Shown here: positions 1 to 64,000 of the stretch, piece by piece
How positions within the stretch are numbered: the first letter of the stretch is position 1
Layout: the number at the start of each line of letters is the position of its first letter
IMG/VR virus record: IMGVR_UViG_3300030109_004543
Length of the DNA stretch: 64,000 nucleotides
Strand: one strand, 5' to 3'
From: an uncultured virus (IMG/VR IMGVR_UViG_3300030109_004543)
Lineage: Duplodnaviria > Heunggongvirae > Uroviricota > Caudoviricetes
Notes under the pieces: model-generated
What the model was told of the DNA's origin: nothing
Seen by the model: the letters and a program-made list of their open reading frames with translations, nothing else
The model's database searches: none
Translations under genes and position numbers: made by a program

Positions 1-139
1 GTCTGTTTAATTCCTCATTAAAAATCTGAATTAATTTGGGGGGTTTTATTGAATATCTTATATTATCAATAATTCCCCAATCTCGGCTTCCAAAAATCCT
101 ATCTAGAAACTCATCTATTTTAATTAAAAAGTTTTTCAT
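1..139 (-). CDS. Partial hypothetical protein running off the left edge (MKNFLIKIDEFLDRIFG...)
   Basis: ATG at 139 (minus), AGGAG RBS at 146-150, frame open to window edge; hand-translated. Confidence 0.55.
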   Translation of the reverse strand, partial: MKNFLIKIDEFLDRIFGSRDWGIIDNIRYSIKPPKLIQIFNEELNR

Positions 140-140
140 G

Positions 141-479
141 TTACACTCCTATTTTTAGTTTAAAAGAATCCCATTCTGTTTCAAATCCATAATCTATTAA
201 GTGATTATTAATAGAATCCCCATATTTTATTAATAATATAAATTCTTTAGACTTTTTTTCAACATCATCAATTGACATAAATTCGTCTGATTCTGATAAC
301 TTTTTATGTTCTACTAAACTTAAAAGTATTTCAGTTAAAAGAGTATTGGCTTTTGTTGAAATGTTTTCAAAGTATTTTTTTGTTATTAAATTTGTATTGA
401 TTTCCATATCTGAAATAAAATCAAATTCTGAATTTAATTTTAATGTTTGTGATTTTAATTCTTTAAAACTTACATTCAT
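141..479 (-). CDS. Hypothetical protein
   Basis: 112-aa ORF, start overlaps stop of upstream gene, GAGGTG RBS. Confidence 0.7.
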   Translation of the reverse strand: MNVSFKELKSQTLKLNSEFDFISDMEINTNLITKKYFENISTKANTLLTEILLSLVEHKKLSESDEFMSIDDVEKKSKEFILLIKYGDSINNHLIDYGFETEWDSFKLKIGV

Positions 480-673
480 TTTTTATACACCTCATTAATT
501 AATTTTTTATTTTTAATTTCTAATACTGTTTTTAATGCATATAATTGACCTTCATACAATAAAATCATACTTCTTCGTAGTTCCTCACTATGGTCAAGAT
601 TATTCTCCTCATATTCATTTATCATTTTCATGACCCATTTTTTATAGTCTTTGATTTCTTTAATTTTTAGCAT
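476..673 (-). CDS. Hypothetical protein
   Basis: 65-aa ORF, GAGGAG RBS at 682-687, promoter directly upstream. Confidence 0.75.
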   Translation of the reverse strand: MLKIKEIKDYKKWVMKMINEYEENNLDHSEELRRSMILLYEGQLYALKTVLEIKNKKLINEVYKK

Positions 674-713
674 TGCAATTTCTCCTCAAAAATTTATTTT
701 TTATATACTTATA

Positions 714-742
714 ATTATAAACCTATTACTTGACAATTGCAA
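714..742 (-). promoter_or_regulatory. Sigma70-type promoter TTGCAA-17-TATAAT
   Basis: Minus strand ttgcaa-ttgtcaagtaataggtt-tataat, upstream of the 673 gene. Confidence 0.65.
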
Positions 743-749
743 TAGGTTT

Positions 750-914
750 TTATGCTATTTTTATATGTTTTTTGTAATCTTTACCATTTGTTGCATATGG
801 GAAACTTGTATAATGACCATAACAACAATGAGCTTTGTGATTTTTACAAACACATGCTTTTTTCATAAAATCAGAATCTGATTTTTTTGATCTTTTTAAA
901 CAACTACACATCAT
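750..914 (-). CDS. Small Cys/His-rich protein, 54 aa (MMCSCLKRSKK...CVCKNHKAHCCYGH...)
   Basis: Hand-translated, AGGAG RBS at 921-925; below ORF-track cutoff. Confidence 0.6.
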   Translation of the reverse strand: MMCSCLKRSKKSDSDFMKKACVCKNHKAHCCYGHYTSFPYATNGKDYKKHIKIA

Positions 915-917
915 AAT

Positions 918-1046
918 TTACTCCTTCTCACTTGTGATGATTTTTCCATTGTCTAGAATTATCACTAACATTGGGTTGGCTTTGTCATCTGATAGGTTGT
1001 AAATCCTGCCACCATTAGTGCCTATTCGTATTTCTTGACTATCCAT
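918..1046 (-). CDS. Small hypothetical protein, 42 aa (MDSQEIRIGTNGGRIYNL...)
   Basis: Hand-translated, AGGT RBS-like element, abuts next gene. Confidence 0.55.
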   Translation of the reverse strand: MDSQEIRIGTNGGRIYNLSDDKANPMLVIILDNGKIITSEKE

Positions 1047-1081
1047 TTTTTTCTACCTTGAAATTAATATTGATACTTACT

Positions 1082-1111
1082 ATTTTAATTCATTTAAAAC
1101 TAATTTGTCAA
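1082..1111 (-). promoter_or_regulatory. Sigma70-type promoter TTGACA-18-TAAAAT for the leftward operon
   Basis: tgtcaa at 1106-1111 and atttta at 1082-1087 on the plus strand. Confidence 0.5.
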
Positions 1112-1366
1112 GTAGTTTTTTATCCTTTTTTGTTAGTTATTTTTTTCACAAACTATCCCATTCTTAGACATGAGACAAAGTATTTTTTATTTTCTCTTGA
1201 CATTTTTATTCTTAGAGTGGTTACAGCTGCCCTAAAAATGACCCCCCCGGTTATAGTGTTTTTGCGTTATTTATATCTATTAACATCCATACTATCTCTT
1301 CCGGAAAAATTTTTTTTATTTTTGAATATCTTTCCCTTCAGTAGCTTAAATTTTTTATAATATAAT

Positions 1367-1375
1367 AGTATAATA
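1367..1375 (+). promoter_or_regulatory. AGTATAATA putative late promoter motif
   Basis: Recurrent 9-mer 20 nt upstream of ATG 1395 (AAGGAG RBS). Confidence 0.55.
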
Positions 1376-1394
1376 GACCTATAAGGAGTACGAT

Positions 1395-1571
1395 ATGAAA
1401 TATATAAAAGAGTATTTTCCAATATTATTAATTTTATTTGGTGGGATAATGGCTGATTTATTCAATGGATTGGATACTGAGATAATAACATTAGAGATAA
1501 TATCTTGGACATCTGTTGCTGTTGGTGTAATAGGTTCAGCTAGAATCGTATGGTTTAAGATTAAGAAGTAA
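1395..1571 (+). CDS. Small membrane protein, 58 aa, two hydrophobic segments
   Basis: Hand-translated MKYIKEYFPILLILFGG...WFKIKK; AAGGAG RBS. Confidence 0.65.
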   Translation: MKYIKEYFPILLILFGGIMADLFNGLDTEIITLEIISWTSVAVGVIGSARIVWFKIKK

Positions 1572-1678
1572 TGAATTGGAAACAAAAATTTATTGAAGGC
1601 ATATTAATACTTCTAGTGTTAGTTATACTTAGAGGTGTCTTTAAAGGGACTAAGGAAGAAGATGACGATAGAGATTGA
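1571..1678 (+). CDS. Small single-TM protein, 35 aa
   Basis: TAATG coupling; MNWKQKFIEGILILLVLVILRG... Confidence 0.5.
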   Translation: MNWKQKFIEGILILLVLVILRGVFKGTKEEDDDRD

Positions 1679-2045
1679 GAAACAAAAATACAAAGGTAAA
1701 AGAGTAAAAAGCCCTAAAGGTGGATTAACAGCTGCTGGTAGAAAATACTTCAAAAGAAAAGAAGGTTCTAACCTAAAACCCGGAGTCAAGGGTAAAGCTG
1801 ATACTCCTACGAAAAAGCGTAGGAAGGGTAGTTTCTTAGCTCGACATTATGGTGGCCCAGCTAAACCTTTAAAAGACAAGAAAGGTAGACCAACACGACA
1901 TGCATTACAAGCTAGGGCTTGGGGAGAAGCAGCTCCTTCAAGTCAATCTGCTGCTAAGGCTCTAGGAGCTAAAGGCAGAAGAATGCTTGATGCATACCAA
2001 CGATCAAAGAATGTAAAGAAATTCGTAAAGTTTGTAAATGACTGA
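1662..2045 (+). CDS. Highly basic phage protein (DUF6321-like)
   Basis: KSPKGGLTAAGRKYF...NLKPGVK...RKGSFLAR...RAWG pattern recalled from phage DUF6321 proteins; ATG 1662 has an RBS. Confidence 0.65.
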   Translation: MTIEIEKQKYKGKRVKSPKGGLTAAGRKYFKRKEGSNLKPGVKGKADTPTKKRRKGSFLARHYGGPAKPLKDKKGRPTRHALQARAWGEAAPSSQSAAKALGAKGRRMLDAYQRSKNVKKFVKFVND

Positions 2046-2301
2046 TTTAGTTATAAAATATTATTATGAGTGTTGTCCTTCTTGTACAAATTACAGAGAT
2101 ACAGCTTTTAAGACCAGCGAAGAAATAAAACATGCCCATCCTAACTACAGCAGAATTGTAGAGTTAGATTTGGTGAATGATGAATTCGCAGTTGAAAGGT
2201 ATTCCAATTACAGTACAGGTTCTGACAAAGAAGTTATCTTCTCCAAGAATTCAGCAGGTAGGTTACCTAACGAAGGAGAGATATTGACATTACTAGAATA
2301 A
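2038..2301 (+). CDS. Hypothetical protein with CxxC, possible thioredoxin-like fold
   Basis: YYECCPSC after an N-terminal beta strand. Confidence 0.5.
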   Translation: MTDLVIKYYYECCPSCTNYRDTAFKTSEEIKHAHPNYSRIVELDLVNDEFAVERYSNYSTGSDKEVIFSKNSAGRLPNEGEILTLLE

Positions 2302-2368: not shown

Positions 2369-2863
2369 GTGACAAGCAATTTTATAGATGAGAAAGAGAA
2401 AACAGCTTTAGCAGATTTAGATTATTCATTAGGATTGATAAAGAATAATAAAGAAGTTTGCTGGAGAAAAGTTAAGAATGAACAAGGAGTAGAAGAAGAG
2501 CAGTTAAATCCTGTAACAGCAATGTTAATCATGGCTACTCAGTTGGTAGGCATAGATAAAATAACAGAAAAGACTTTAAAAGAGTTTTTAACACGATTAA
2601 AGATGATGGAAGCGATTGGAAATGTTTTAATTGTAGACCCTGAAGGACAAGTCAGGAATCATAACGAACATGAATTAAAGCTTCACATGGGTTTAAGTAC
2701 TACAGCCCATCGATTAGACAAGCGAAAATTCAGGAATCGAATTTCTAATTGGGTAGAAACTAGAGCTCAAGAGATAAAAGATTCAGAATCTGCTAGTATA
2801 ATAAATCAGGAGGAAAATAATGCAGATACGGAAACAGGGGACTCACCCAAAAAGAATAACTAA
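2369..2863 (+). CDS. Hypothetical protein
   Basis: 164-aa ORF, GTG start, AGGAG RBS. Confidence 0.7.
   Translation: MTSNFIDEKEKTALADLDYSLGLIKNNKEVCWRKVKNEQGVEEEQLNPVTAMLIMATQLVGIDKITEKTLKEFLTRLKMMEAIGNVLIVDPEGQVRNHNEHELKLHMGLSTTAHRLDKRKFRNRISNWVETRAQEIKDSESASIINQEENNADTETGDSPKKNN
2795..2803 (+). promoter_or_regulatory. AGTATAATA putative late promoter motif
   Basis: Just upstream of the AGGAGG RBS of the HNH gene. Confidence 0.55.
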
Positions 2864-3254
2864 ATATGACGTACAACAGAGAATAGCTAAAAAACGAGAT
2901 GTTTTTGATTATTTAGGTAGAAATCCTAAAGAGGATATGCAAACCGATAAACTAAAAATTCGGTTAATTAGAGAAGGCATGCTAAAACCTAAATGTGATG
3001 ATTGTGATAGAGATCAATGGAGAGACGAAACTATTACTCTTGAATTAGATCATATAGATGGAAATAAAGAAAACAACTCTTTAGCAAATCTTCGGCTGCT
3101 TTGCCCCAATTGTCACTCTCAAACTCCTGAATATAGAAGTAGAGTAGGACAAACCCAAGAAGACAGAGACCAAAGAAGTAAAGATTACAGACAAAATATG
3201 GATCAGATAATAGCTGATGGAATAAAATTAAGAGAGAAACGATTAGGAGAATAA
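2820..3254 (+). CDS. HNH endonuclease
   Basis: CDDC...LELDHIDGNKENNSLANLRLLCPNCH motif. Confidence 0.9.
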   Translation: MQIRKQGTHPKRITKYDVQQRIAKKRDVFDYLGRNPKEDMQTDKLKIRLIREGMLKPKCDDCDRDQWRDETITLELDHIDGNKENNSLANLRLLCPNCHSQTPEYRSRVGQTQEDRDQRSKDYRQNMDQIIADGIKLREKRLGE

Positions 3255-3255
3255 A

Positions 3256-5544: not shown

Positions 5545-5901
5545 GTGTTTGAATATAAAGCGAATTTAGTTAAAGTTGTTGATGGAGATACCATTGATGT
5601 TGATTTAGATTTAGGTTTTGGAGTTTGGCTAAAGAAACAAAGAGTTAGACTTTATGGAATAAATACTCCGGAAAGCCGGACAAGAGACTTAGAAGAGAAA
5701 AAAAGGGGTTTAGCTGCTAAGGATAGAGTTGTAGAGCTTATAGAGAATTGTGAAGAATTAAGCATAAAAACTATAATAAACAAAAAAGCTAGAGGAAAAT
5801 ATGGAAGAATTCTAGCTGATATCTTGGCTGATGGAATTAATGTCAATCAACTCCTAGTTTCTGAAGGTCATGCTGTCGAATACTTTGGAGGGAAAAGATG
5901 A
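5545..5901 (+). CDS. Thermonuclease (staphylococcal nuclease-like)
   Basis: VVDGDTID...RVRLYGINTPE...GKYGRILA...NQLLVSEGHA. Confidence 0.9.
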   Translation: MFEYKANLVKVVDGDTIDVDLDLGFGVWLKKQRVRLYGINTPESRTRDLEEKKRGLAAKDRVVELIENCEELSIKTIINKKARGKYGRILADILADGINVNQLLVSEGHAVEYFGGKR

Positions 5902-7241: not shown

Positions 7242-10200
7242 ATGACTACAAAAGAATTCGTAGAGAAATATAAGAAAGTCTATGAGTCTCTTATAAACGA
7301 TCCGTACACTAAAGAAACGGATACTAAAACAAGAGAACAAGTAGCCTCTGAAGAAGCTCAACAAAGAGTAAAACAATCTATGAATAATGAAAAAGCTCTT
7401 AGTATGGCAGCTGAACTGTCTTCTGTTGAAAAATTTACAAGTTTTGTAACTAAACAAGAAGTAGATTTAGACGATATTATCTATGGAACTCCTAGTCGAC
7501 CTCAATTAAAAAGAATGAAGAAACCTGTAGAACTATTTGATCTTAAACTAGAAGATTTGGATGTTAAAGAACCACCATCTAATTCTAGTAAAGAAACAAT
7601 ACAAGAATTAAGAACTTTACAGGATCAGACTAAAAATGTAGATGACGATCTAAAGAAAACTATAAATAGACAAGATGAAGATGTTGTAACAGATTTTATT
7701 GTTTATTGCGATAAAAATAATTTAACATATGATAAAGCATTCTTAGACCAAGTAATAAAAGAGACGGCTTCTTATGTAAGCCATTTAAAATATAAATTTA
7801 ATAGACCTAGACCACGACAATTAGGAGAATTAGTAGATATTCCAATTATTCAACAAGAAGGAAAAGCTTCTAATACGCCTTCATATCCATCCGGCCATAC
7901 TATCCAAGCTAGAGTTGTGGCTTTATTTTTAGGTAGAGAACACCCAAAACATAGAGAAGAACTTCTAAAATTAGCTGAAGAGATTGGGGTAAATAGAATA
8001 AGAGGTGGATTTCACTATACTAGCGATCATGAAGCAGGTAGAGTAGTAGCCAATAATTTATGGGCAAGCCTGTTAAATAGAATTAGAAGTATGAAAAAAG
8101 CTTTTGGCTCTGACCCAATGACAGAACTGATAAAAGATTATATGGAATCTAGAAAAGAAAAATGGGGAAATATAACTAAGATAGGTAATTTTGTAACTGA
8201 AGAAACCCTACAAAAAGATGAGTTTAGCGATAACATAAAAAACGAAGAGAACCATATAAAGAAAGTTAGAGAACTAACAGAAGAATACAAAAAAGATGAA
8301 AAACACAGTATTCCAAAACAAGGACATCTATGGTACGATACAATTAATCAAGAAGTATATTCTGAGCAAGCAATTAATTTTAATGATTTAGATACTAGAG
8401 GTAAGATATCAAGCAGCAGAATAAGACCTGTAAACTATGAAACAGGAGAATTATTAATATACGATGATTATAGAAAAAATATTGGTGTGAATACCTATGT
8501 TGATGGTATTGCACAAAAACCTAAAGCAACACCTAAACCTAAGACTAAGAAAAAAACTAAAAAAGTTCCAACAGACAGAACATTATCTTCAAAAGAAACT
8601 AAAGAAACGAAGAAAAAGGTAGTAATACCTGCTGTACATAAACTAACCTCACAAGCTAGGAAACATTTATTGGAAAACTTGGGACAAAAAGCGTTTACTA
8701 GAAGGTTAAATGCAGGAAAATTCGATGATATTAAAAATATAGGCGATGCTAGAAAACATGTAGAAGATAACCCTATTAGACAGACTAAACCTAAAACAGA
8801 AACTACTACAGATGAGGCTCCTACTACAACTGAAACAGATACTACTACGCCTACTACAGCTGAAACAGAAACTAGTACTCCTGAACCTACAACAGATACT
8901 ACTACAACTAAAACAGGAGAAGCTGATACCCCTACTACTACAACTGCAACAAAAAAACCTAAAGCGACACCTAAACCTAAAAAAGAAACAGCAGTAGAAG
9001 AACCTAAGACTGATGACCCTATTCAAGATGCTATAAATGAATTGGGGCCTAGAGTACAAGAATTATATGAAAATTCAGTAGATGAAGAAGATAGAGATGT
9101 ACATACTTTAGAAAGATGGACTAACCATCACCTAAGAAGAAAAAAAGATGCTGACGAATTAGTAAACCATGTTATATCTGAAAATAAGAAGAATAGAAAT
9201 GCTAAAGCTAAAGAAGAAGCTGCAGCAAAAGCTCAACAAGAAAAAGAAGCTGAAACTGAAAAAGCAAAAGAAGAGAAGGAAAAAACTGCAAAAGCAGAAG
9301 TCGAACAAAAAGAACAAGATGACGCTGAAAAACAAAGACAGGATACTATAAGTTCTCATAAACAAAGACTTTCTGACATAGGGGCTTCGGAAAGAGTAGA
9401 AGATACCTTTAAAAAACCTATTGAAGATATGACTCAAGAAGAATTAAATTTAGCAGAAAGTGAGATAGACTCTGCTGAAAAAGACTTTGTAAAACAAAGA
9501 AGTATTGATTTACATAAAGATAGACATCTACCTCCTACAAAATCCCATGAAATGTTATCTACCCCTAAAGAGATAAAAGACAAAGATAAAGCAGATTTAA
9601 ATAAGATAAAAGAATCTTTAGGATCAGATTATAGAAACAGCACTAAAATGAAACAAAACATGACTTCAGATGCGATGAATTATTTAAAATTACGAGCTAA
9701 ATATTCCGATAGTTTAGACCCTAAATCAAAAAGTTATAGTAAGGAATTTGCAGAAGAGATGAATCAATGGCAAAATTCACTAGAAATAATATCTAACGAG
9801 GGAAAAAGACTAGGCGAAAGAAGCCTAAAAAGAAAAGCAGCTGGTAAACTTGTAGGAAAAGCATTCAGAGGAAATTGGCTACCTGAAGAAGTAACGCTTG
9901 AACTAGGAAGAGATGTGATAAGACTCATGGCAAAGCATAAGAAAGAAGATGGAACAATAGATAAAAAAGCTTTACACGCTGAACTAGAAGAAAAACATCA
10001 ATCTTTTAGAGAACGAGAAAAACTTTCTACTTCAGCATTTGAAGCCTCTGTATCAGATGAAGATTCCTTATCAGGAGAAGAGTCTGTATCAGGACAAGAT
10101 AAACCTTCAAAAGAAGACGTTAAACTAATAGGTCAAACTCGACCATCTCCTAAAACAGGAATTCCACAGATATATGTACCCGGAAAAGGAGAAGGTTGGA

Positions 10201-10484
10201 CAAACATTAGAACAAAAAAGAAGGGGCAGCTTGTAGATGAACAAGGATTAGAAGCTAAAGCGAGACAAAAAATTCAAGCTTATGCAACTAAACATAATAT
10301 AAAGCTTCCAAAATTAAAAAAACCTAAACAAACAGAACCTAAAGGTAAGGGAAAAACAGCGACAGAAAGACTAAAGAACTTTTTAGAGGGTGATGGTAAA
10401 GGTTCAGCCTTAGCTAGAGTTGCAGCAGCAGGAATAGGAGCCGTAGCACAAGTAGCTAGAGCCCCTGAAGAAAAAAAGGAGTAA
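7242..10484 (+). CDS. Large charged protein with N-terminal PAP2 (acid phosphatase/haloperoxidase) domain
   Basis: KYKFNRPRP, PSYPSGH, NRIRGGFHYTSD motifs; Thr/Pro- and Glu/Lys-rich linkers follow. Confidence 0.8.
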   Translation: MTTKEFVEKYKKVYESLINDPYTKETDTKTREQVASEEAQQRVKQSMNNEKALSMAAELSSVEKFTSFVTKQEVDLDDIIYGTPSRPQLKRMKKPVELFDLKLEDLDVKEPPSNSSKETIQELRTLQDQTKNVDDDLKKTINRQDEDVVTDFIVYCDKNNLTYDKAFLDQVIKETASYVSHLKYKFNRPRPRQLGELVDIPIIQQEGKASNTPSYPSGHTIQARVVALFLGREHPKHREELLKLAEEIGVNRIRGGFHYTSDHEAGRVVANNLWASLLNRIRSMKKAFGSDPMTELIKDYMESRKEKWGNITKIGNFVTEETLQKDEFSDNIKNEENHIKKVRELTEEYKKDEKHSIPKQGHLWYDTINQEVYSEQAINFNDLDTRGKISSSRIRPVNYETGELLIYDDYRKNIGVNTYVDGIAQKPKATPKPKTKKKTKKVPTDRTLSSKETKETKKKVVIPAVHKLTSQARKHLLENLGQKAFTRRLNAGKFDDIKNIGDARKHVEDNPIRQTKPKTETTTDEAPTTTETDTTTPTTAETETSTPEPTTDTTTTKTGEADTPTTTTATKKPKATPKPKKETAVEEPKTDDPIQDAINELGPRVQELYENSVDEEDRDVHTLERWTNHHLRRKKDADELVNHVISENKKNRNAKAKEEAAAKAQQEKEAETEKAKEEKEKTAKAEVEQKEQDDAEKQRQDTISSHKQRLSDIGASERVEDTFKKPIEDMTQEELNLAESEIDSAEKDFVKQRSIDLHKDRHLPPTKSHEMLSTPKEIKDKDKADLNKIKESLGSDYRNSTKMKQNMTSDAMNYLKLRAKYSDSLDPKSKSYSKEFAEEMNQWQNSLEIISNEGKRLGERSLKRKAAGKLVGKAFRGNWLPEEVTLELGRDVIRLMAKHKKEDGTIDKKALHAELEEKHQSFREREKLSTSAFEASVSDEDSLSGEESVSGQDKPSKEDVKLIGQTRPSPKTGIPQIYVPGKGEGWTNIRTKKKGQLVDEQGLEAKARQKIQAYATKHNIKLPKLKKPKQTEPKGKGKTATERLKNFLEGDGKGSALARVAAAGIGAVAQVARAPEEKKE

Positions 10485-30343: not shown

Positions 30344-30877
30344 ATGGAAATTACAGATACATTAGTTGAACAATGGGAACCTAAAATACATAGAATCTTA
30401 GCGACTACTTCAATTCAAGGTATGGATAAAGAAGATTTAGTACAAGAATTGAGAATAGTGATTGTAAAAGCAGCTAAAAAATTCAATCCCAACAAAAAAA
30501 CTTCTTTCCATACTTACTTACATACAGCTATGATAAATACTATAAGAACTTTTATATCTCAAGCTCAGAAAAAAATACATGCTACTAGTATGGATAAGTT
30601 AATTATGTATAGTGAATCAGAGTATGTACCTTTTAAAATTTCTAAAGCTTTAGAAGACATAAGAGCTTCAGCCTTTATAGACGAGATTGAGATATTTGAT
30701 ATTCTAGATAATTTAAAGTTAACTGAAAAAGAAAAAAAGTACATAGAATTAAGATTTGAAGATTTAACAATGGTAGAAATTAGTGAGGATTTAGAAGAAT
30801 CGGCTTATAGAGTTAGAAATAAAATTAGAAAGAAATTTGAAAACTTATACAAGGAGAAGATTGAACATGCCTCTTAA
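30344..30877 (+). CDS. Phage-encoded sigma70-family sigma factor
   Basis: DKEDLVQE...AAKKFNPNKKTSFHTYL region 2; LTEKEK..IELRFEDLTMVEISEDL region 4. Confidence 0.85.
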   Translation: MEITDTLVEQWEPKIHRILATTSIQGMDKEDLVQELRIVIVKAAKKFNPNKKTSFHTYLHTAMINTIRTFISQAQKKIHATSMDKLIMYSESEYVPFKISKALEDIRASAFIDEIEIFDILDNLKLTEKEKKYIELRFEDLTMVEISEDLEESAYRVRNKIRKKFENLYKEKIEHAS

Positions 30878-33437: not shown

Positions 33438-34115
33438 ATGAGTGGAATAGCACGAATACAATCAAGAATACAAGAAAGATTACAAACCCAAAACGTAGAC
33501 ACAAAAGAATACTTTTTAAGAGCTGGAGACCAAGTTTTTCTCTCTGCAGCAGGAGATGGTAAAGAAGGAGACCCTTTCGTTTCTGAAATACAGATGCTGA
33601 CTTGGAGAGAAGGTAACAGATTTAAAAGCGTTTTAATAACAGAAAACGATGATGTCGATAAAATTAGAGTGGCTTTAAATGTGCCTGAAGATTCTAGAGT
33701 TCAAAAGAAATTTGCAATGTGGACATACATATATGAAGCTTTGCATGTAGAAAAAAGAGTAGATAGTTGGACAGCATTAGAAGGCCCTAGTGGTAAAACC
33801 CTATATAAAGAAGAACTTAATGATTTTAGAATAATGTCCTTGCCTTTTGGAAGAGGTGGATATCTTTGGAATCAATTAGTAGATATCTTTGAAGAATGGG
33901 GAAGCCTTAATAAAGGTGTAATACGAATAAAAAGAGATGGAACAGGATTAGATACTACTTATAGTATAGCAGCTTCTACTAGAGAACTTAGCAATCCTGA
34001 TAAAGATACTTCAGAATTAGTATCTGTAGACGAATATTTTAAAAATAGATATTCTGCAGATATTGGAACTGATTCTTCAGGTAAAAAATCTGAGGATTTA
34101 AGCCTGTTTGAATGA
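33438..34115 (+). CDS. Probable single-stranded DNA-binding protein
   Basis: IKRDGTGLDTTYSI motif, acidic/aromatic C-terminus (EDLSLFE), between primase and polymerase. Confidence 0.6.
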   Translation: MSGIARIQSRIQERLQTQNVDTKEYFLRAGDQVFLSAAGDGKEGDPFVSEIQMLTWREGNRFKSVLITENDDVDKIRVALNVPEDSRVQKKFAMWTYIYEALHVEKRVDSWTALEGPSGKTLYKEELNDFRIMSLPFGRGGYLWNQLVDIFEEWGSLNKGVIRIKRDGTGLDTTYSIAASTRELSNPDKDTSELVSVDEYFKNRYSADIGTDSSGKKSEDLSLFE

Positions 34116-36160
34116 TAGTAAATACAGAAAATTATCAAGAAGTTATTGATAAAATTCTCCCAAAGAAATCATGGATAGTAGATGTCGAAACCAATGGTTT
34201 AGACCCATTTCACGTTAACCGATTATGTGGAATAGGAATAGGAACAGAGGAAGGAGATACTTATTACTTTCCCTTTCGACATCAACAGGGTGGGAATCTA
34301 ATTATCAAGAAATATTTGAAACCTTTAATAGAGGTTATGAGTCAGAGAGAGACTCTAATCGGATATAACATTAAATTCGATTTAAAATTTCTAGAATTGG
34401 AAGGATTAGATACCGACAATATTAAACTAGTTGATGTCTTAGTAATGGTACGTTTAACTGAACCTACTACTATTCGTGATTTAGATTTAACTTCTACAAT
34501 ATTTAGAAGTTATGGGGAAAAAGCAGCTTCATACGACATAGAAACCAAGAAGATTTTAAAGTCTAATAAATGGCACAAGGATTTTTCTTTAGCTCCTGTA
34601 GATATACTAGGGGAATATTGCGAGCAAGATGTGAAATGGACTGCTAAATTACATGAAGATAGAATGCTAGATATAAAAGAAACTGATCAAATAGAATTAT
34701 TTGAAGCACAATGTGAATTAACAAGAGTATTAAATCACATGGAAAGAACAGGTATTCCAATTGATCTAAAGTATGCAAAAGATTTGATAGATAAATTAGA
34801 AGCTAGAAAACAAGAGGTAGAAAAACAAGTTAAAGTTTTACTAGACGATCCTGAAATAAATATAGGGAGTACTAAACAGCTAGGAGAAGCTCTTAATAAA
34901 AGAGGAATTAAATCCCCTGTAAAGACTCCTAAAGGAAAACAGTCTTGGAGTGAAGAAGCTTTAGCTAGGATAAACAATCCTATTGCTGGGTTAGTAAGAC
35001 AGTATAGAACTTTGGAAAAATTAAAGAGTACTTATGTAGAATCTTTAATAGAACCCTATGAAATTCCTATTCTACATTCTTCTTTCTGTAATTGGGGCAC
35101 TTTAACAGGCAGACTATCGTCTAGAGACCCTAACCTACAAAACATACCTAGAAATCATTTCAAATTATCTAATAGAAAGTTTGATACTGACGAAAGACAA
35201 GATATCATAAAAAGAATAAATGCTTCTCTGACTTCTAAGGGAGGAGAACCTATTGAAAATTTAGATGATGAAGTATTAGATACTTGGGGATTTATAGGAG
35301 ATGAGTCTTTTGACGAAACAGATACTAAAGAAATATCTATTAGAAGGTTATTTGTACCTAGAAAAGACTACACTTTAGTTTCTTTTGATTACTCTCAAAT
35401 GGAAGTAAGGGTATTTTTAAGCTATTTGAAAAATCCAAAATTTGACGACTTACTAAAGAAAGGAGATTTAGATTTTCATTCCGAAGCAGCTAAGTTAGCT
35501 TTTAATATCTCAGAGAACCATGTAGATTTTAAAACTTATAGACAAGCTGCTAAAGCTATTACCTTTGGAATTATATATGGAATAGGAAATAAAAAATTAG
35601 CCACACAATTAGGGGCTACAGTAGAAGAAGCAAAGAAATATAAAAAAGATTATTTTAAGAATATTGAAGGTTCAAGAGACTTTATTAATGGTGTAATGCA
35701 AGCAGTTTTAGATAGAGGATATTTATATAATAAGTATAAAAGGTTTTATGCTATTGAATCAAAATATGCTTACAAAGGAGTAAACTATTTAGTTCAAGGC
35801 ACTAGTGCTGATATTTTAAGCGAGAGGATGATAGAAGTACATAAATATTTACAAGATACGCAAAGTAATATACTATTACAAGTACATGACGAGATTATAT
35901 GTGAAATTCATAATGATGAGGTAAACACTATAACATACGAAATTAAAAATTTATTAGAAAACAATAGTTTAAATATCCCATTAAAAGTAGATGTGGAGGT
36001 TTGTGAACCTTCTTGGGCTTCAAAAAGAGATGTAACTTTTGTGAAACAAGGAGATTCTCATTGGGTTTTGGGAGGAAAGGTAGATTTATCAGATTTACCT
36101 TCTAGAAAAGAACCTGAAAAAATTGAAGATCATATCGATTGGGATACAGTAGGAGTTTAA
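34112..36160 (+). CDS. polA: Family A DNA polymerase with 3'-5' exonuclease
   Basis: DVETNGL, YNIKFD, YCEQD; TGRLSS..PNLQNIP; DYSQMEVR; KAITFGIIYG; QVHDE. Confidence 0.95.
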   Translation: MIVNTENYQEVIDKILPKKSWIVDVETNGLDPFHVNRLCGIGIGTEEGDTYYFPFRHQQGGNLIIKKYLKPLIEVMSQRETLIGYNIKFDLKFLELEGLDTDNIKLVDVLVMVRLTEPTTIRDLDLTSTIFRSYGEKAASYDIETKKILKSNKWHKDFSLAPVDILGEYCEQDVKWTAKLHEDRMLDIKETDQIELFEAQCELTRVLNHMERTGIPIDLKYAKDLIDKLEARKQEVEKQVKVLLDDPEINIGSTKQLGEALNKRGIKSPVKTPKGKQSWSEEALARINNPIAGLVRQYRTLEKLKSTYVESLIEPYEIPILHSSFCNWGTLTGRLSSRDPNLQNIPRNHFKLSNRKFDTDERQDIIKRINASLTSKGGEPIENLDDEVLDTWGFIGDESFDETDTKEISIRRLFVPRKDYTLVSFDYSQMEVRVFLSYLKNPKFDDLLKKGDLDFHSEAAKLAFNISENHVDFKTYRQAAKAITFGIIYGIGNKKLATQLGATVEEAKKYKKDYFKNIEGSRDFINGVMQAVLDRGYLYNKYKRFYAIESKYAYKGVNYLVQGTSADILSERMIEVHKYLQDTQSNILLQVHDEIICEIHNDEVNTITYEIKNLLENNSLNIPLKVDVEVCEPSWASKRDVTFVKQGDSHWVLGGKVDLSDLPSRKEPEKIEDHIDWDTVGV

Positions 36161-37253: not shown

Positions 37254-38204
37254 ATGGATAATGATAAACTATTTGAACGATTACAGAAAGCAAATCCTAA
37301 AGTAGAATTAAAAATAGGAGACGATGATGTATTTAATTATGAAAGAATTTCTTTTGGAGTACCTAAACTAGATAAATTAGTCGGTGGAGGAATACCAAAG
37401 AAGAGATTTAGTATGTTATTAGGACAAACTAATGTTGGAAAGTCTTTTTTAGCTTCACAGTTAGTAGCCAATGTTCAAAAAGATGGGGGAACAGCAGTAT
37501 GGATTGATACTGAACAATCTTTTGATCCTATATGGAATGAGAAAAATGGGGTTGATACGAGTAAAATTATAGTTCTACAACCTGCAAATGGGGAAGAAGG
37601 ACTTAATTTAGCTAGTTCAGCTTTGCAGGAAGGAGTAGATATCGTAGTAATAGATAGTTTTGCTGGTTTGGTTCCTGCAGCAGTTCAAGATGAAGAGTTT
37701 GGATATAATCCAATGGCTTGGCAAGCAAGGTTTCTAAACTCAGCTTTACCTAAACTATTAACACATTTAAAACATGGGTCAGCTTTAGTAGCAATAAACC
37801 AATTGAGAAGTAATGTAGGAAGAGTAACCTATAATAATATGCCCGGTGGGATAGGACAGCAGTTCTATTCTCATTTACAATTAGAAGTCAGAAGATCAGC
37901 TTGGATAGAAGAAGGCAAAGATAAAATAGGATTTGAAATGGAGATAAGATTAAAGAAAACTAAGCAGGGTGGAGACGATTGGGATTCAATTGTCTTACCT
38001 TATAAAGTGGGTGGAGGAATTGATTTAATAGAAGTTACTATTAACGAAGCTTTAGAAAAAGGTCTAATAAAACAATCAGGGGCTTGGTACTCTTATAACG
38101 ATCAGAGAATTCAAGGTAAAAATAGAGTAAGGCAATACTTTGTAGATAATCCAAATATGTACGAACAATTAACTAAAGAAGTAAGTAGTGACATATTACC
38201 ATAA
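37254..38204 (+). CDS. recA: RecA/UvsX-family recombinase
   Basis: GGGIPK, GQTNVGKS, IDTEQSFDP, VVIDSFAGL, INQLR, GAWYSY. Confidence 0.92.
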   Translation: MDNDKLFERLQKANPKVELKIGDDDVFNYERISFGVPKLDKLVGGGIPKKRFSMLLGQTNVGKSFLASQLVANVQKDGGTAVWIDTEQSFDPIWNEKNGVDTSKIIVLQPANGEEGLNLASSALQEGVDIVVIDSFAGLVPAAVQDEEFGYNPMAWQARFLNSALPKLLTHLKHGSALVAINQLRSNVGRVTYNNMPGGIGQQFYSHLQLEVRRSAWIEEGKDKIGFEMEIRLKKTKQGGDDWDSIVLPYKVGGGIDLIEVTINEALEKGLIKQSGAWYSYNDQRIQGKNRVRQYFVDNPNMYEQLTKEVSSDILP

Positions 38205-38517
38205 AGATTATACTCCACAAGAGAAAACCTTTGCTAAATGTATACAAGAATTTGGACTTCGCTACGAGACTCAATACTCTTTTCCACCCTATACAGTTGA
38301 TTTTTATATACCTGAAGTTAGATTAGTAATCGAGGCAGATGGAATGTTTGGACATTTAAAGAAAGCAGATGCTAAAAGAGATGCTAATCTACTAGAAGAT
38401 TATAGTAATGATATACGAAAGGTGTTTCATATATCAGAAACGAGCAAAAAGAAAATAATACCTTTAATAGAACAAGTTTTAAATGAAATTGAGGAGGAAG
38501 ATAGTGGCAGGAATTAG
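38188..38517 (+). CDS. DUF559/Vsr-like endonuclease
   Basis: QYSFPPYTVDFY...IEADG..H....D.KRD..L. Confidence 0.8.
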   Translation: MTYYHKDYTPQEKTFAKCIQEFGLRYETQYSFPPYTVDFYIPEVRLVIEADGMFGHLKKADAKRDANLLEDYSNDIRKVFHISETSKKKIIPLIEQVLNEIEEEDSGRN

Positions 38518-45333: not shown

Positions 45334-45780
45334 ATGGCAGTAGGCAATATGCTTAGAGATAGAGACATTCAGTATGTGGCTATGAAAGATGAAACCACAC
45401 AAACGTGGAGAATTTTAGACACATGGCATGAAGAATTAAAGAATTTAGACCCGGATGATGACGTACCTGATGATAGTAAAGCAGTTAGTGTACTAACAGA
45501 AGGACAATTCTTGGCTATAGTAAAAGAAGCAGCTAGATTAGGAGTTTTACAGAATGTAAACCTTTCTAATGTCGAAGAAGTTGAAGAATTAGAAGATAAG
45601 ATTTTAGGTTTAGAAGAAGAAATATCAGATTTAAAAACTGATGCTACTAAACATGAAACAGAAAATAACATTTTAAAGCAAGAACCTACATCTGAAAGTT
45701 TTATGATAAAGAAATTAGCTATGAATAACATTATGAAACTTGCAGCTATAGATGATGTAAACAAACTTGCAGTAGATTAA
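45334..45780 (+). CDS. Hypothetical protein
   Basis: 148 aa, AGGAG RBS. Confidence 0.75.
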   Translation: MAVGNMLRDRDIQYVAMKDETTQTWRILDTWHEELKNLDPDDDVPDDSKAVSVLTEGQFLAIVKEAARLGVLQNVNLSNVEEVEELEDKILGLEEEISDLKTDATKHETENNILKQEPTSESFMIKKLAMNNIMKLAAIDDVNKLAVD

Positions 45781-50625: not shown

Positions 50626-50838
50626 ATGGCAGAACCTATAAAAATTACACCTGATCAAGAATATATAATGTCTAGACATTCTAAAATGGTAGGAAAAGTT
50701 TTAGATTTAATAGAAGCTTCTATGCCTGAAGGCAATCAATGTGAAAAAATGAAGAAATTAATTCAGCAACCCTTATATGATTATCGAAATGAGATGTTAA
50801 AATTCATTTCCGATGGTCAAAAAGTAGAAGATAACTAG
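50626..50838 (+). CDS. Hypothetical protein
   Basis: 70 aa, AAGGAG RBS. Confidence 0.75.
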   Translation: MAEPIKITPDQEYIMSRHSKMVGKVLDLIEASMPEGNQCEKMKKLIQQPLYDYRNEMLKFISDGQKVEDN

Positions 50839-51906: not shown

Positions 51907-53247
51907 ATGGCAAATCCATCCTTATCAGAATACGTTTCCCAAAGTCAAAGAGGCTTATACTCTTCAGTATTTGGCCCTGAATACTTAATGAAACAGACCT
52001 ACTTTACTGTAGATACTGCAACAGGCATATTCAATACGACTTACGGAAGAAAAGTATGGCAAGCTTTGAACAACCAAACTCGTGCTTTTAATGCAATACC
52101 AAGAACTGTATGGGGTAATACAGCTGGTTGGAGAATCAGAACTGACAGAGGTTCAGGAAGATCACGACCTGTAACAGAAACAGGTTCTCTACCTACTGTT
52201 GACGTTTCAAATATAGAAAGCGTCAGCTCCCTACCAAAGATTGTATCAACAACCTTTGGAGCATCAGTCAAGTCCGTATTTACTGCCCAATTAGAAGGTG
52301 GTGTAGGTGACGTATTAGCATTAGAAAACGAAAATGCTCAACTTGACCATGTAAAAGAAATGAACCAAGAATTATTAGCTGGTTCTGCATACCAATTATC
52401 AGGTGGTTCAACTACCACATCGGTACTTGGTTCAAACTCAACTGAAGCAGCCCACTTTAAAGTAGGCGACACAGTAGCTTTCTACGATGCTTCAGCTACA
52501 GCTAACATTAAAACAGACGCTAGTGTAACAGTATCTAGCGTATCTTCAGCAACAATTACTCACGGAGCTGCAGGTGTAACCCTAGCAGACGGAGACGTTA
52601 TTTTCGCTTTGAGAAGAGCTGGAATAACTTCCCTTGATGACATTGTGTCCGAAGATGGAATGGCAGTAGGTGGTGTAAATGCTTCACCTTCAGCTTATGA
52701 CTTAACAGTCGCAGGAAGAACAGCTGGGCAATGGAATGCAGCAGCTAGTGCTTCTTACAATAGTGGTACAGGAAGAGATTTATCTCTAAACCTTTTAGAT
52801 ACTGCTATCCAAAAAATCAGAACTAATGGTGGTGAACCTAAAGTAATCATCATGGGTCATGATCAGTACTTCAAGCTAGAGAGATTATTAAACTCTCAAC
52901 AGAGGTATATGGGACAAGAAGAATACCAAGTTGGTGTCGGATCAGAAAAGACTTTCCCCGGTACTAGAACAGGTCTTGTTCTTGCAACTTATCAGGGTAT
53001 TCCAATACTACCTGATGCAGATACTCCGAAGTCAATTAACTCTTCAGATACTGCTTTAGGTTCAAACGTTTACGTTTTGGATACCGACTATCTCGAAATC
53101 GCTATAGCTCAACCTACTCAGTATGTTGAGAATAGAGACTACTTCGCAGCCAATGCTTTGGTTGTAAGAGGTCTTCTTTACACTATGGGTGAAATGAGAT
53201 GTCACAACTTCTTTGTACAAGCAAAGATTGCTGACTTAAACAGCTAA
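51907..53247 (+). CDS. Major capsid protein (HK97 fold) with inserted beta domain
   Basis: Position; LLDTAIQKI...G.P.VIIM, YQGIPILPD, VYVLDT...GEM; followed by a strong terminator. Confidence 0.85.
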   Translation: MANPSLSEYVSQSQRGLYSSVFGPEYLMKQTYFTVDTATGIFNTTYGRKVWQALNNQTRAFNAIPRTVWGNTAGWRIRTDRGSGRSRPVTETGSLPTVDVSNIESVSSLPKIVSTTFGASVKSVFTAQLEGGVGDVLALENENAQLDHVKEMNQELLAGSAYQLSGGSTTTSVLGSNSTEAAHFKVGDTVAFYDASATANIKTDASVTVSSVSSATITHGAAGVTLADGDVIFALRRAGITSLDDIVSEDGMAVGGVNASPSAYDLTVAGRTAGQWNAAASASYNSGTGRDLSLNLLDTAIQKIRTNGGEPKVIIMGHDQYFKLERLLNSQQRYMGQEEYQVGVGSEKTFPGTRTGLVLATYQGIPILPDADTPKSINSSDTALGSNVYVLDTDYLEIAIAQPTQYVENRDYFAANALVVRGLLYTMGEMRCHNFFVQAKIADLNS

Positions 53248-57886: not shown

Positions 57887-58156
57887 GTGAGTAAATACGA
57901 AGACGAAATAAACGAGATACTAAATAGACAATATACTGTTAGTGAACTAAAAGAAAGGTTAGTTAAAACTAGAGAGTTATTGGCTATGGCAAATCAATGT
58001 GATAGAGGACAGGTTTTAAAAAGACATTTAAAACTATGTGAAACTCTATTAAGTTCTATTAGATGTCATGATTGTGTGAGGGAATTCGGAGATTCGATTA
58101 AGGAACTTAAGGAACTTTATGAGTATGAGAGTGACGATAATAAAGGTTATGTATGA
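57887..58156 (+). CDS. Hypothetical protein
   Basis: Probable GTG start 57887 within ORF 57815..58156. Confidence 0.55.
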   Translation: MSKYEDEINEILNRQYTVSELKERLVKTRELLAMANQCDRGQVLKRHLKLCETLLSSIRCHDCVREFGDSIKELKELYEYESDDNKGYV

Positions 58157-58755
58157 GTAAAGAAAACTTCAGCATAGATTTAATTACTAAACATGAAGCC
58201 TCAGAAGTATTAAGTAAGTTTCATTACTTAACATCTTTAAGCAGAGGTTTTAAATCAGGAATTAATTTTGGTTTATTTGATGAAGAAGGGTCGTTAAGGG
58301 GAGTCTGTATTTTTACAGGCTTTCCTGTACCTGAATTATCAAAAGGATTGTTTGGATTAGACAGGGAAGACCAAGAAGGTCTTTACGAGTTAAGCAGATT
58401 ATGTATGCATCCTAAAACACAGGAAGAGGAATATAATATTACTTCTTGGTTTGTAGCTAGATGTATAAAGGAATTAAAGAAGCAGGGAAAAGTAAGGGCT
58501 TTATTAAGTTATGCTGATACTGATTATCATAGTGGTATAATATATAGAGCTTTAAGTTTCGATTACTATGGGCTTACTGCCCCTAAGAAAGACTTTTATA
58601 TTAAAACATCTGAAGGAAGTTATCTAAAACATTCTAGGGGTAAGGTAAAAGGGTTAGAAGGAGAGTGGAGAGATAGGACAAGGAAACATAGATATTTAAA
58701 AGTATTTGATAAAAAATTAAAACCTAAGTGGGAGAAAATAAAATGGCAAATGTAA
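58153..58755 (+). CDS. mom: Mom-like DNA modification protein (GNAT fold)
   Basis: HYL, FGLF, ELSRL, LLSYAD...H.G.IYRA..F.Y.G, KHRY. Confidence 0.8.
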   Translation: MSKENFSIDLITKHEASEVLSKFHYLTSLSRGFKSGINFGLFDEEGSLRGVCIFTGFPVPELSKGLFGLDREDQEGLYELSRLCMHPKTQEEEYNITSWFVARCIKELKKQGKVRALLSYADTDYHSGIIYRALSFDYYGLTAPKKDFYIKTSEGSYLKHSRGKVKGLEGEWRDRTRKHRYLKVFDKKLKPKWEKIKWQM

Positions 58756-61487: not shown

Positions 61488-61878
61488 GAAAAGAGCAGAA
61501 AAGTTTGTAAATAATAATCTTCAGAGAAACCAATATCAAGGACATATCTCTTGGTGTATGGATTCAAAATGCTATGGAGTAAACTTCTTCTCTATTAAAT
61601 CTTATGACACTAAATGGATTAGTAGAATATTAAATGACCCTACTTTACAATATTCTTGTAGGTGGTGTGGGACAAAAGGACAGTTTAACTCTGTAATGTT
61701 TATGAATGGAGAACTTAATGCCAAGTTTTATAGAGAACTTAGAGAGGGGCAGATAGACAGATGTGTTACTTATATAAGTGGATTTCTATGGAAAATAGGA
61801 AACAAAGTTAGGAAAGAAAGTTTGAAAGAACTAATGAAGGAACTCTTAATTCATGAGGAGAGATTTGATGAAGATTAA
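61471..61878 (+). CDS. Hypothetical protein with Cys pairs
   Basis: CMDSKC, CRWC. Confidence 0.65.
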   Translation: MITKNKKRAEKFVNNNLQRNQYQGHISWCMDSKCYGVNFFSIKSYDTKWISRILNDPTLQYSCRWCGTKGQFNSVMFMNGELNAKFYRELREGQIDRCVTYISGFLWKIGNKVRKESLKELMKELLIHEERFDED

Positions 61879-62176
61879 AGATACTTGGGAAGATAGGAAT
61901 AGTTTTGACCAAGCTTTCTATTCATTAGCTGATGATTGGTCTAAGTATATGATTAGATGTGATCAGCTAGATGTAAAGGGTACAGACGATTCTAAAGATG
62001 ATGAAATTAACTATGGATTATTAGAGAATATAGTTTTCTATGTTTTAGGTACTTGGTTTCATGATGAAGGTCAACTTCATATAGATTTAGAGCATTGTTA
62101 TAAAACCGAGTGGGAAACCAAACTAGAAGAAGCCTTACATAAGTTTGAAGACTTAAGGAAAGGATATGACGAATAA
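61868..62176 (+). CDS. Acidic hypothetical protein
   Basis: ATG 61868 after GAGGAG. Confidence 0.65.
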   Translation: MKIKDTWEDRNSFDQAFYSLADDWSKYMIRCDQLDVKGTDDSKDDEINYGLLENIVFYVLGTWFHDEGQLHIDLEHCYKTEWETKLEEALHKFEDLRKGYDE

Positions 62177-62265
62177 TTTTAATCAACAACATTGTTCAGA
62201 TAAGAATTGTACTTTAACTAAGGAACAATTTGAACAATTACAAAAATATATAGGGAGTTTGGAAT

Positions 62266-62652
62266 ATGGACAAAACAGATTCTACGAAACCGAATATGAA
62301 GAAGCAAACGAAGAAGCAAGAAGAGAAGCCGAAGATTATAATTGAAAAGCTTGAGATAGAAGCTAAAGATTTACCTAAAGAGTTACCGAAAAAAACTGAG
62401 GTAAAAAAGGAAGAGGTACTGAAGCAAGGGGAAGCTAAATGTGATAGATGTAAGATGACCTTTGAAGAAAGACTTGCTTATAAAGTAGAGATGTCAGATA
62501 ATCTTCAATGGGGAGAGTATCAAGACAACGACAAAAACCTTACTGTATCTAATGCTATGAAAGAATTGGGATTTTACATAATCTGTGATACCTGCTATAA
62601 TACTTCTATTGATGGTAGTACAGGTAGCATAAGTCGTGAATGGTTTGAATAA
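62266..62652 (+). CDS. Hypothetical protein with two CxxC
   Basis: CDRC, CDTC; GGGAG RBS. Confidence 0.65.
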   Translation: MDKTDSTKPNMKKQTKKQEEKPKIIIEKLEIEAKDLPKELPKKTEVKKEEVLKQGEAKCDRCKMTFEERLAYKVEMSDNLQWGEYQDNDKNLTVSNAMKELGFYIICDTCYNTSIDGSTGSISREWFE

Positions 62653-62663
62653 TGAAGGGGTTT

Positions 62664-62692
62664 TTGACAAAATTAAAAAAATGGTTTAAACT
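62664..62692 (+). promoter_or_regulatory. Sigma70-type promoter TTGACA-17-TAAACT
   Basis: Upstream of gene 62746. Confidence 0.5.
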
Positions 62693-62745
62693 GTATGCAA
62701 AGAAATTTAAAAATATTTATTACACAATAGATTGGGAGAATTGAA

Positions 62746-63354
62746 ATGGCATGGAATAAGTTTCCAAAACAATTACAGATGTTTGGATTTCCGAAAGAAG
62801 TACAATTAGATTATGTTTTAAGAAAAGATGTAATCCTTGAAAAGCTAATTGATTTAGATATTCGAGATGAACAAACATATAATAATCAAGACTTTTATTT
62901 AGGTAGTGAGCAAAGACTTAAATATTTATTGATTACAACTGAAACTTTTTATTGGTCGCATGATGAGGAAGAAGATAATAAATACTATGATTGTATTAAT
63001 CTAGCTACCTTAGAAGTTAATAACTTTGATTTAGCTAAAGAACTTCTATTCATGGATTCAGTAGATTTATATCATTATGTAGAGATAGAAAAAAGTTATG
63101 AGTGGATAGGGGAAGACTACGAACATATAACAGACTATATAGATTTTGTTGAATACAGGCAAGATAAATACAGGTGGTTAAACCAATCTGAAAATTGGGA
63201 TAGCGATAAAATGAATATAGAAAGAGTAACCCTTAAAGAATTACTTGCAAGGTATAGACCACTAGAACATAGATATACAATGTCTGATGTTGCTATGGAT
63301 AGAATGGAAAAGGAATTAGTAGCACAGAACAGGGGGTATTATGCCCTTACCTAG
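62746..63354 (+). CDS. Acidic hypothetical protein
   Basis: 202 aa, GGGAG RBS. Confidence 0.7.
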   Translation: MAWNKFPKQLQMFGFPKEVQLDYVLRKDVILEKLIDLDIRDEQTYNNQDFYLGSEQRLKYLLITTETFYWSHDEEEDNKYYDCINLATLEVNNFDLAKELLFMDSVDLYHYVEIEKSYEWIGEDYEHITDYIDFVEYRQDKYRWLNQSENWDSDKMNIERVTLKELLARYRPLEHRYTMSDVAMDRMEKELVAQNRGYYALT

Positions 63355-63586
63355 AAGAGTAGAACAAGCAAGTAAAGAAAAGGTTATACAGGTTAGTCAG
63401 CAAATACTATTTGACACACTTAATGATATTAAGGTACAATTAGATTCGATTGATGATAAAGTATGGGAAGATATTGAAAAGGAACTTAATACTATAGAAG
63501 AACTTATTTCAAACCATGAACATATAGATTTAGAATATATGATTGATAATCAACTTAGATTAGAAGGAACAGGATTAAAAACATGA
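63341..63586 (+). CDS. Hypothetical protein
   Basis: 81 aa, overlaps both neighbours. Confidence 0.6.
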   Translation: MPLPRRVEQASKEKVIQVSQQILFDTLNDIKVQLDSIDDKVWEDIEKELNTIEELISNHEHIDLEYMIDNQLRLEGTGLKT

Positions 63587-63915
63587 GTAAAGATTTTAGC
63601 GAATACATAGATGATTATTGTGAAGATACTTATGGTCATACAAATTGGGCATACTTAGACACATTAACCAAAGAAGAACTAGAAGCTAACAAAGACAAAG
63701 GCGATATAGATAAACTTAATAATCTATTCTTTTATTATGAAGATGATAGTAACAATCTACAGATAGAAGCTATGTTAGAATCTAATGAATACATTGATGA
63801 ATATGGAAGGTTATTAAATGAATATGGTCATGTAGTAACTGACTTAAATGGGGAAGCTATTTATGTTGATGATGACAAGATGGAATATTATACAGTAAAA
63901 GAATATGAGGTTTAG
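63583..63915 (+). CDS. Acidic hypothetical protein
   Basis: 110 aa, ATGA coupling. Confidence 0.65.
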   Translation: MSKDFSEYIDDYCEDTYGHTNWAYLDTLTKEELEANKDKGDIDKLNNLFFYYEDDSNNLQIEAMLESNEYIDEYGRLLNEYGHVVTDLNGEAIYVDDDKMEYYTVKEYEV

Positions 63916-63916
63916 T

Positions 63917-64000
63917 ATGGATAAGGCAGAGTTATTTTTAAATGAATTAGAATCATTATTAGGTCGTTACTTTGATACAGATTGGAACTACGATTTTGAT
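63917..64000 (+). CDS. Partial hypothetical protein running off the right edge
   Basis: ATG 63917 after GAGG, open to window end. Confidence 0.5.
   Translation, partial: MDKAELFLNELESLLGRYFDTDWNYDFD

Follow-up and report, generated by a model that had tools for sequence, protein, structure and literature searches.

Separate losses of CCAGA, CCAGT and CCAGG, among many other short words, in an uncultured marine tailed phage

The stretch of DNA analyzed here, referred to as the window, comprises 64,000 bases (33.2% guanine plus cytosine, GC) from an uncultured marine tailed phage (IMG/VR record IMGVR_UViG_3300030109_004543, Caudoviricetes) and covers about 64 kb of a genome of roughly 80 kb. 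In the window, the tetramer CCAG occurs only as CCAGC, and CCAGA, CCAGG, and CCAGT (together CCAGD) are absent. The three words are lost independently of each other among the relatives of the phage, and the substitutions found at former CCAGA sites are derived and shared by several genomes. The best reading, given a probability of about 80%, is that the phage has been purged of many host restriction sites, mostly by synonymous point changes, and that the CCAGC-only pattern is the product of three separate purges at different depths of the lineage. The selective agents would be restriction-modification (R-M) enzymes of the hosts.

Missing CCAG words in the window and its relatives

CCAG was found 24 times and its complement CTGG 28 times, and all 52 copies read CCAGC or GCTGG, as had been noticed by eye in a preliminary description of this DNA. 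The sites listed there as examples (2114, 19841, 22931, 36421, and 54101) were all confirmed; the one at 2114..2118 is one of the 24 on the + strand, and the 28 GCTGG represent the other strand. CCAGA, CCAGG, CCAGT, and their complements had zero copies each in the whole window, whichever strand or reading frame was considered. For both strands together, the zero-order expectation was 65 CCAGA, 32 CCAGG, and 65 CCAGT, and the maximal-order Markov expectation 14.7, 13.5, and 9.8, respectively. For the codon-aware null, the synonymous codons of 88 crudely called open reading frames (ORFs) were shuffled 200 times, which yielded 75.0 ± 6.7 CCAGA (minimum 58), 71.8 ± 6.5 CCAGT (minimum 57), and 22.9 ± 3.1 CCAGG (minimum 16). 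The three words are thus far below composition- and codon-aware expectation under every null, and their avoidance is independent of strand and reading frame. CCAGC was present in 52 copies vs 80.0 ± 5.9 in the shuffles (65%), a shortfall that is a side effect of the scarcer use of CCA before G. The base following ACAG, GCAG, or TCAG was C in 412 of 1677 cases (24.6%), and that following CCAG in 52 of 52 (p ~2e-32).

Codon choice bends around the missing words in the way that was described earlier. Proline before glycine was encoded by CCC (13 times) or CCG (4 times) and never by CCT or CCA, and proline before GA by CCT (68) or CCG (9), with no CCA or CCC. CCA as a proline codon before GT, TCT before GG, and ACT before GG did not occur, and CCA preceded GC 18 times. 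Five of the six coordinates given earlier for Pro-Gly pairs were right within a base; the pair placed at 10187 is actually at 10179.

Relatives were collected from IMG/VR using the major capsid protein gene (51907..53247, + strand; Pfam SU10_MCP, E-value 1.9e-12) as a query, and a second, independent set of loci was obtained with the family A DNA polymerase gene (34112..36160, + strand; Pfam DNA_pol_A, E-value 2.9e-80). The capsid query recovered 444 relatives and the polymerase query 305, and the best 80 of each were taken. Complete relatives are 81–82 kb long, and the nearest record, of 61 kb, is about 79% complete. Two capsid loci (L001 and L002; 32.0 kb, 99.9% nucleotide identity) represent the same strain as the window, and they are not independent evidence; CCAGA, CCAGT, and CCAGG are all absent from them. 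The closest loci of other strains, group A (L003, L004, and L006; 27.2 kb, 93–95% nucleotide identity), contained one CCAGA and no CCAGT or CCAGG, and group B (L005, L007–L010, and L032; 48.7 kb, 87–91% nucleotide identity) contained 47 CCAGA and again neither of the others. CCAGA is the sole window-avoided word that separates group B from the window and group A. CCAGT is present in group C (22 loci, 198 kb, capsid 74–77%), with 348 CCAGA, 372 CCAGT, and no CCAGG, and in group E (8 loci, 91.5 kb, capsid 65–67%), with 173, 131, and 0; pooled, these 30 loci (290 kb) have 521 CCAGA, 503 CCAGT, and neither CCAGG nor GGCC. Group D (39 loci, 292 kb, GC 0.385–0.49) has all three words (712 CCAGA, 651 CCAGT, and 492 CCAGG); just 54 copies of GATC are present in it, and CCAGG is missing from four of the loci (L046, L069, L071, and L072).

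The picture was replicated in the polymerase region, where loci L105–L107 and L109–L114 (80–88% identity) had 1–13 CCAGA each and no CCAGT or CCAGG. No CCAGA was found in L104, L108, L115, and L120–L122, of which L121 and L122 (84% identity) are just about 2 kb each. In all 15 B-type loci from the two regions (138.5 kb, 80–91% identity), observed and expected counts were 101 and 182 for CCAGA, 0 and 137 for CCAGT, 0 and 51 for CCAGG, and 116 and 148 for CCAGC. Loss of CCWGG is thus spread over several clades, loss of CCAGT is found only in the clade of the window (80–100% nucleotide identity), where about ten unrelated words (CCGC, CASTG, ACSGT, GGACG, and others) are lost at the same point, and loss of CCAGA only in the nearest sub-lineage.

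Among whole records, G002 has 119 CCAGA, 123 CCAGT, no CCAGG, and 87 CCAGC, and G003 has 105, 86, 0, and 89, respectively. GGCC, GCGC, CCWGG, CGWCG, and TTCGAA are missing from G002, and G003, which matches G002 at 77% identity across 68% of its length, lacks AGTACT, AAGCTT, ACTAGT, GAATGC, and AACGTT besides these; four of these five hexamers are kept in G002 (10–23 copies each), and AACGTT is absent there too. GATC, GGWCC, CCGG or CCSGG, CTGCAG, and more are missing from G004 and G005, and TTCGAA is missing from all four of these long records. Each clade of the phage family (G002–G005; loci L082–L097) was observed to have its own set of fully absent words. Such clade-specific sets are the behavior expected under changing host R-M repertoires.

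In the favored reading, the purge of CCWGG, an EcoRII-type palindrome common to distant clades, would be the oldest. The purge of ACTGG/CCAGT, a BsrI-type asymmetric site, would date from the base of the clade of the window, where some ten further words would have been lost too, and that of CCAGA/TCTGG, known in Neisseria as a Type IIS target, would be the youngest and limited to the immediate sub-lineage. CCAGC may have survived because no enzyme met by the lineage cuts it.

Former CCAGA sites and other lost words

Individual sites show how CCAGA was removed. The window, L004, and L006 read CCTGA at 50650..50654 (+ strand; third codon position), where all six covering sister loci (L005, L032, and L007–L010) read CCAGA; the same replacement in the same three genomes is found at 50725–50729, again with CCAGA in all six covering group B loci. 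As CCAGA is present in every covering group B locus at both positions, the loss is derived. Former CCAGA sites at 45451, 48784, and 56954 were replaced by CCGGA in the window, L004, and L006. Across 17 distinct former CCAGA/TCTGG positions, these three genomes mostly have the same replacement, and 11 of the 17 differ at third codon positions only, which makes the purge a derived and largely synonymous one within the A lineage. None of the 39 aligned CCAGA sites is conserved in the window, which is true by construction, and they were used just to describe the mode of change.

Over 43.5–57 kb, L004 (one CCAGA) and L005 (ten CCAGA) are at a similar distance from the window, and they are 92.6% identical to each other. 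The CCAGA trait is polymorphic among very close genomes, via recent selection, recombination, or both. In the same region, the identity of L004, L005, and L032 to the window varied from 84% to 98% per kb.

All 4–6-mers were scanned against the synonymous-shuffle expectation, and 13 or more short words besides CCAGD, typical of Type II sites, were fully lost from the window: CCGC (expected 61–62), GCGC (17–18), CGCG (4.9), CASTG (40), ACSGT (28), CCCGA (14–15), CCCGT (13–14), GGACG (14–15), CGWCG (13–14), GAGCG (12.5), AGATCT (23), TTCGAA (9.5), and TACGTA (7.8–8). A few copies were left of GCACC (3 vs 42–43 expected), GGWCC (2 vs 19), and AGATCC (1 vs 34). Five of the avoided words are palindromic 5-mers whose middle base is S or W (CCWGG, CASTG, ACSGT, CGWCG, and GGWCC). 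Control words were near expectation (ACAGT 127 vs 116, CAATG 109 vs 108, GGCC 34 vs 32, CCGG 42 vs 35, GTAC 179 vs 173, and TTAA 666 vs 669). CCCG is found only as CCCGG, and CCCGG/CCGGG is over-represented (22 vs 8.9) because Pro-Gly must be written without CCWGG.

The same scan showed an excess of AGCT (459 vs 387, z 5.4) and a depletion of GATC (108 vs 194), much of the latter shortfall being at RGATCY (AGATCT 0, AGATCC 1, and GGATCC 0). When the scan was made for avoidance on one strand only, as in Type III systems, no 5-mer and a single marginal 6-mer were obtained: GCATCT had one copy on the + strand vs 14.5 expected, its complement AGATGC had 43 vs 34, and the difference was marginal after multiple testing.

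Restriction enzymes exist for several of the avoided words, namely BspNCI (CCAGA), TspRI (CASTG), AciI (CCGC), and BscGI (CCCGT), and CGWCG is the cutting site of Hpy99I. To our knowledge, there is no known enzyme for CCAGD as such. EcoRII and PspGI are described as recognizing CCWGG (PMC4081073) and BsrI as recognizing ACTGG (PMC3017599), and a Type IIS R-M system with a 5-methylcytosine (m5C) methyltransferase from N. meningitidis is described as targeting CCAGA (PMC7973814). The latter corrects the preliminary description, in which known enzymes were assigned to only two of the three words. The recognition sequences of EcoRII/PspGI, BsrI, and the N. meningitidis system are exactly the three CCAGD words missing from the window; the enzymes come from unrelated, non-marine bacteria and are named just as known separate targets for each word. 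The avoided words are known R-M recognition sequences in the case of CCWGG, ACTGG, CCAGA, and CGWCG.

According to the survey by Rusinov et al. 2018 (PMC6286503), elimination of sites is for the most part limited to sites of orthodox Type II systems and to non-temperate double-stranded DNA phages. The window shares with the phages surveyed the complete or near-complete loss of short Type II sites, described there as strongest in double-stranded DNA, apparently virulent phages and as having a host-specific repertoire. It differs from them as described there in its unusually many fully lost words (13 or more) and its many asymmetric 4–5-mers (CCGC, CCAGA, ACTGG, GGACG, GAGCG, CCCGA, and CCCGT). 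The case is an extreme, lineage-specific instance of a known phenomenon and not a new kind of defense or counter-defense. Nothing on this phage lineage was found in the literature on restriction-site avoidance that was searched, a negative limited to that search.

As an example of restriction-driven genome editing in nature, the lineage would be unusually clean. Genomes about 92–93% identical over their shared stretch (L004 and L005) differ in the purge of one asymmetric 5-mer, CCAGA, and the substitutions can be read directly, being mostly synonymous and common to several genomes. Such negative imprints of uncultured phages could be matched to the methylation motifs of co-occurring metagenome-assembled genomes (MAGs) for host assignment and could be used to predict the R-M systems that are at work in the sea.

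Proposed host restriction and alternative explanations

Several observations weigh against a history of separate restriction-driven purges. A cognate R-M system in the host would have to be presumed for every word, and no cognate enzyme could be documented here for ACSGT, CCCGA, GGACG, GAGCG, or GCACC (REBASE lay outside the comparison). Genomes with and without CCAGA are mixed in the capsid-gene tree, where L005 is placed beside L004 and L032 near the window. This intermingling points to recombination or very recent change, and the variable local identity together with a tree discordant with CCAGA status suggests mosaic recombination among co-occurring strains. CCAGA in the B-type loci is at 55% of expectation, and CCAGC is at 65% in the window and 78% in the B-type loci; the states are therefore graded and not binary. 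The ORF calls behind the shuffles are crude (longest-ORF greedy). Lastly, a 4-mer stem common to three avoided 5-mers is unlikely by chance: when 10 GC-rich 5-mers were drawn at random, it was seen in 1.4% of the draws. The test was post hoc, but the sharing of a stem would be compatible with related enzymes that have a core in common; CCCG, present only as CCCGG, is a second stem of this kind.

The last point bears on a single-agent explanation, in which one host defense or one diversifying nuclease lineage with a CCAG or CC-G core broadened its specificity in steps, from CCAGG to CCAGK and then to CCAGD, the phage clades recording the steps. The nested states {G}, {G,T}, and {G,T,A} would fit this, as would the low chance (about 1.4%) of a shared stem and the maximal zero motif WCKGG (= CCMGW), which joins CCAGA, CCAGT, CCCGA, and CCCGT with 173.5 copies expected. 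EcoRII, PspGI, SsoII, and NgoMIV are, moreover, described as recognizing related CC..GG sites with a common structural framework (PMC4081073). The nestedness is built in, however, as just the words avoided in the window were followed, and the loss of CCAGT coincides with that of about ten unrelated words, as if the host repertoire had changed. The B-type absent set (CCAGT, CCCGA, CCCGT, and CCAGG, with CCAGA present) corresponds to no single motif in the degenerate nucleotide (IUPAC) code, and a separate enzyme is documented for each of CCWGG, ACTGG, and CCAGA. Such stepwise widening is considered very unlikely. That the words on the CCAG stem and the parallel ones on the CCCG stem (CCCGA and CCCGT) are the imprint of one diversifying host nuclease lineage is, put in this form, unlikely; if it were true, nested phage clades would record the evolution of the recognition sequence of a defense in the wild, and ACSGT, CCCGA, GGACG, GAGCG, and GCACC would be predicted targets of restriction specificities, so far undescribed, of an uncultured marine bacterium. 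Fixed single motifs were also tried and rejected. An asymmetric CCAGD-targeting defense, one of the two mechanisms put forward in the preliminary description, does not fit the relatives, where the words are not avoided together (CCAGA/CCAGT/CCAGG at 101/0/0 in the B-type loci and 521/503/0 in groups C and E). CCMGW fails in the B-type relatives, which keep CCAGA and are without CCAGT, CCCGA, and CCCGT.

The other mechanism put forward earlier was that the host targets CCAG generally and that a Mom-like enzyme of the phage modifies the A of CAGC, so that only CCAGC is tolerated. The window does have a Mom-family gene (GNAT-type DNA adenine modification) at 58153..58755 (+ strand), with matches to Pfam PF25680 (E-value 1.6e-22; 80.6 bits, cut-off 27.1; profile positions 2–190 of 202) and PHROG 1384 (E-value 4.7e-33). 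The A of CCAGC is in the SAS context in which Mu Mom acts: Mu Mom is described as modifying A in SAS/SASNY, the product being the tRNA-dependent (transfer RNA) N6-carbamoylmethyl-adenine (PMC13219725). The fifth base of CCAGN plays no part in this context, and CCAGA, CCAGG, and CCAGT would therefore be modified as much as CCAGC. L005 retains Mom at 92% amino-acid identity and yet tolerates ten CCAGA in 19.6 kb. Conversely, no Mom match was obtained in any of the five records searched, which include G002 (99% complete) and G003 (100% complete), and these two have no CCAGG and 87–89 CCAGC. R111, S124, and R151 are essential in Mu Mom, with a strong contribution of D149. The window protein is 24% identical to Mu Mom, and in a three-sequence MAFFT alignment, uncertain at this identity, H58, Y59, R111, D149, and Y159 were invariant and S124 and R151 unmatched. 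The predicted gene thus resembles Mu mom in its PF25680 match and the five invariant residues, and it differs in its low identity, the two unmatched residues, and a presence uncorrelated with the CCAGC-only pattern. It appears to be a genuine Mom-family gene without a link to that pattern, and the shielding mechanism is barely credible. Among isolated phages, the closest homologue of the gene belongs to Roseobacter phage CRP-212 (57% identity), the stretch being annotated there only as a hypothetical or pyrophosphohydrolase-domain protein. When the protein was compared with PDB sequences, a single match of no use was obtained (E-value 0.15).

Causes other than defense include mutational bias (e.g. 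deamination at methylated CCWGG), codon-pair or translational constraint, and avoidance of the nucleases of the phage itself. Several nucleases are indeed encoded, with HNH genes at 2820-3254 and 38188-38517 and an SNase-like gene at 5545-5901, and CCAGC and GATC are partly depleted too. But exact zeros in every frame and on both strands are not given by mutational equilibrium or translation, and the avoided set shifts between close relatives that are nearly fully collinear (in L005, 19157 of 19583 bases were aligned). More than a dozen unrelated words would, in addition, require many self-nucleases. An origin of this kind is regarded as highly improbable. What stands of the preliminary description is its general idea of selection by a host DNA-targeting defense, which is the best reading in the form of separate purges, and neither of its two specific mechanisms holds.

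Gene content and host clues

ORFs were called by a longest-ORF greedy procedure, which gave 88 ORFs (97% coding), 82 of them on the + strand. The proteins recognized, besides the sigma-70 family and Mom-family proteins, were a family A DNA polymerase, a bacterial-type RecA, a DnaB-like helicase, a DnaG-type primase, a ribonucleotide reductase, a large terminase, a portal, a prohead protease, an SU10/HK97-type capsid protein, and a tail tube. No tRNA genes were found in the window. DNA methyltransferases were found neither among the 88 ORFs with PHROGs (E-value ≤ 1e-5) nor among the 50 of the 88 ORFs scanned with Pfam.

Isolated phages gave no match to 8 kb of the window in megablast. In a tblastn search of isolated viruses with the capsid protein, only haloarchaeal and methanogen (Methanofastidiosa) tailed viruses were matched, at 26–31% identity over less than half of the protein (9 records). 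These matches were rejected as a clue to the host, the replication genes and the sigma factor being bacterial in type. The latter is a predicted sigma-70 family gene with regions 2 and 4 (30344..30877, + strand; Sigma70_r2, E-value 1.1e-13; Sigma70_r4, E-value 4e-5; PHROG 351), which, judged by these domain matches, argues for a bacterial host. MAG links were found for three relatives: an 87-kb contig in a Candidatus Nitrosopelagicus bin and two short contigs in a Dehalococcoidia bin (L100, L101, and L102). These links are probably binning artefacts; they conflict with each other and are at odds with the bacterial-type sigma factor of the phage. The long contig (L100; 87,326 bases, GC 40%) lacks CCAGG, GCGC, and GATC.

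In the structural and tail region, a protein of 1080 amino acids (7242-10484, + strand) has a PAP2 domain at residues 179-270 (E-value 1.2e-9). PAP2 is an acid phosphatase/lipid phosphatase superfamily, and it is unusual in a protein of the virion module.

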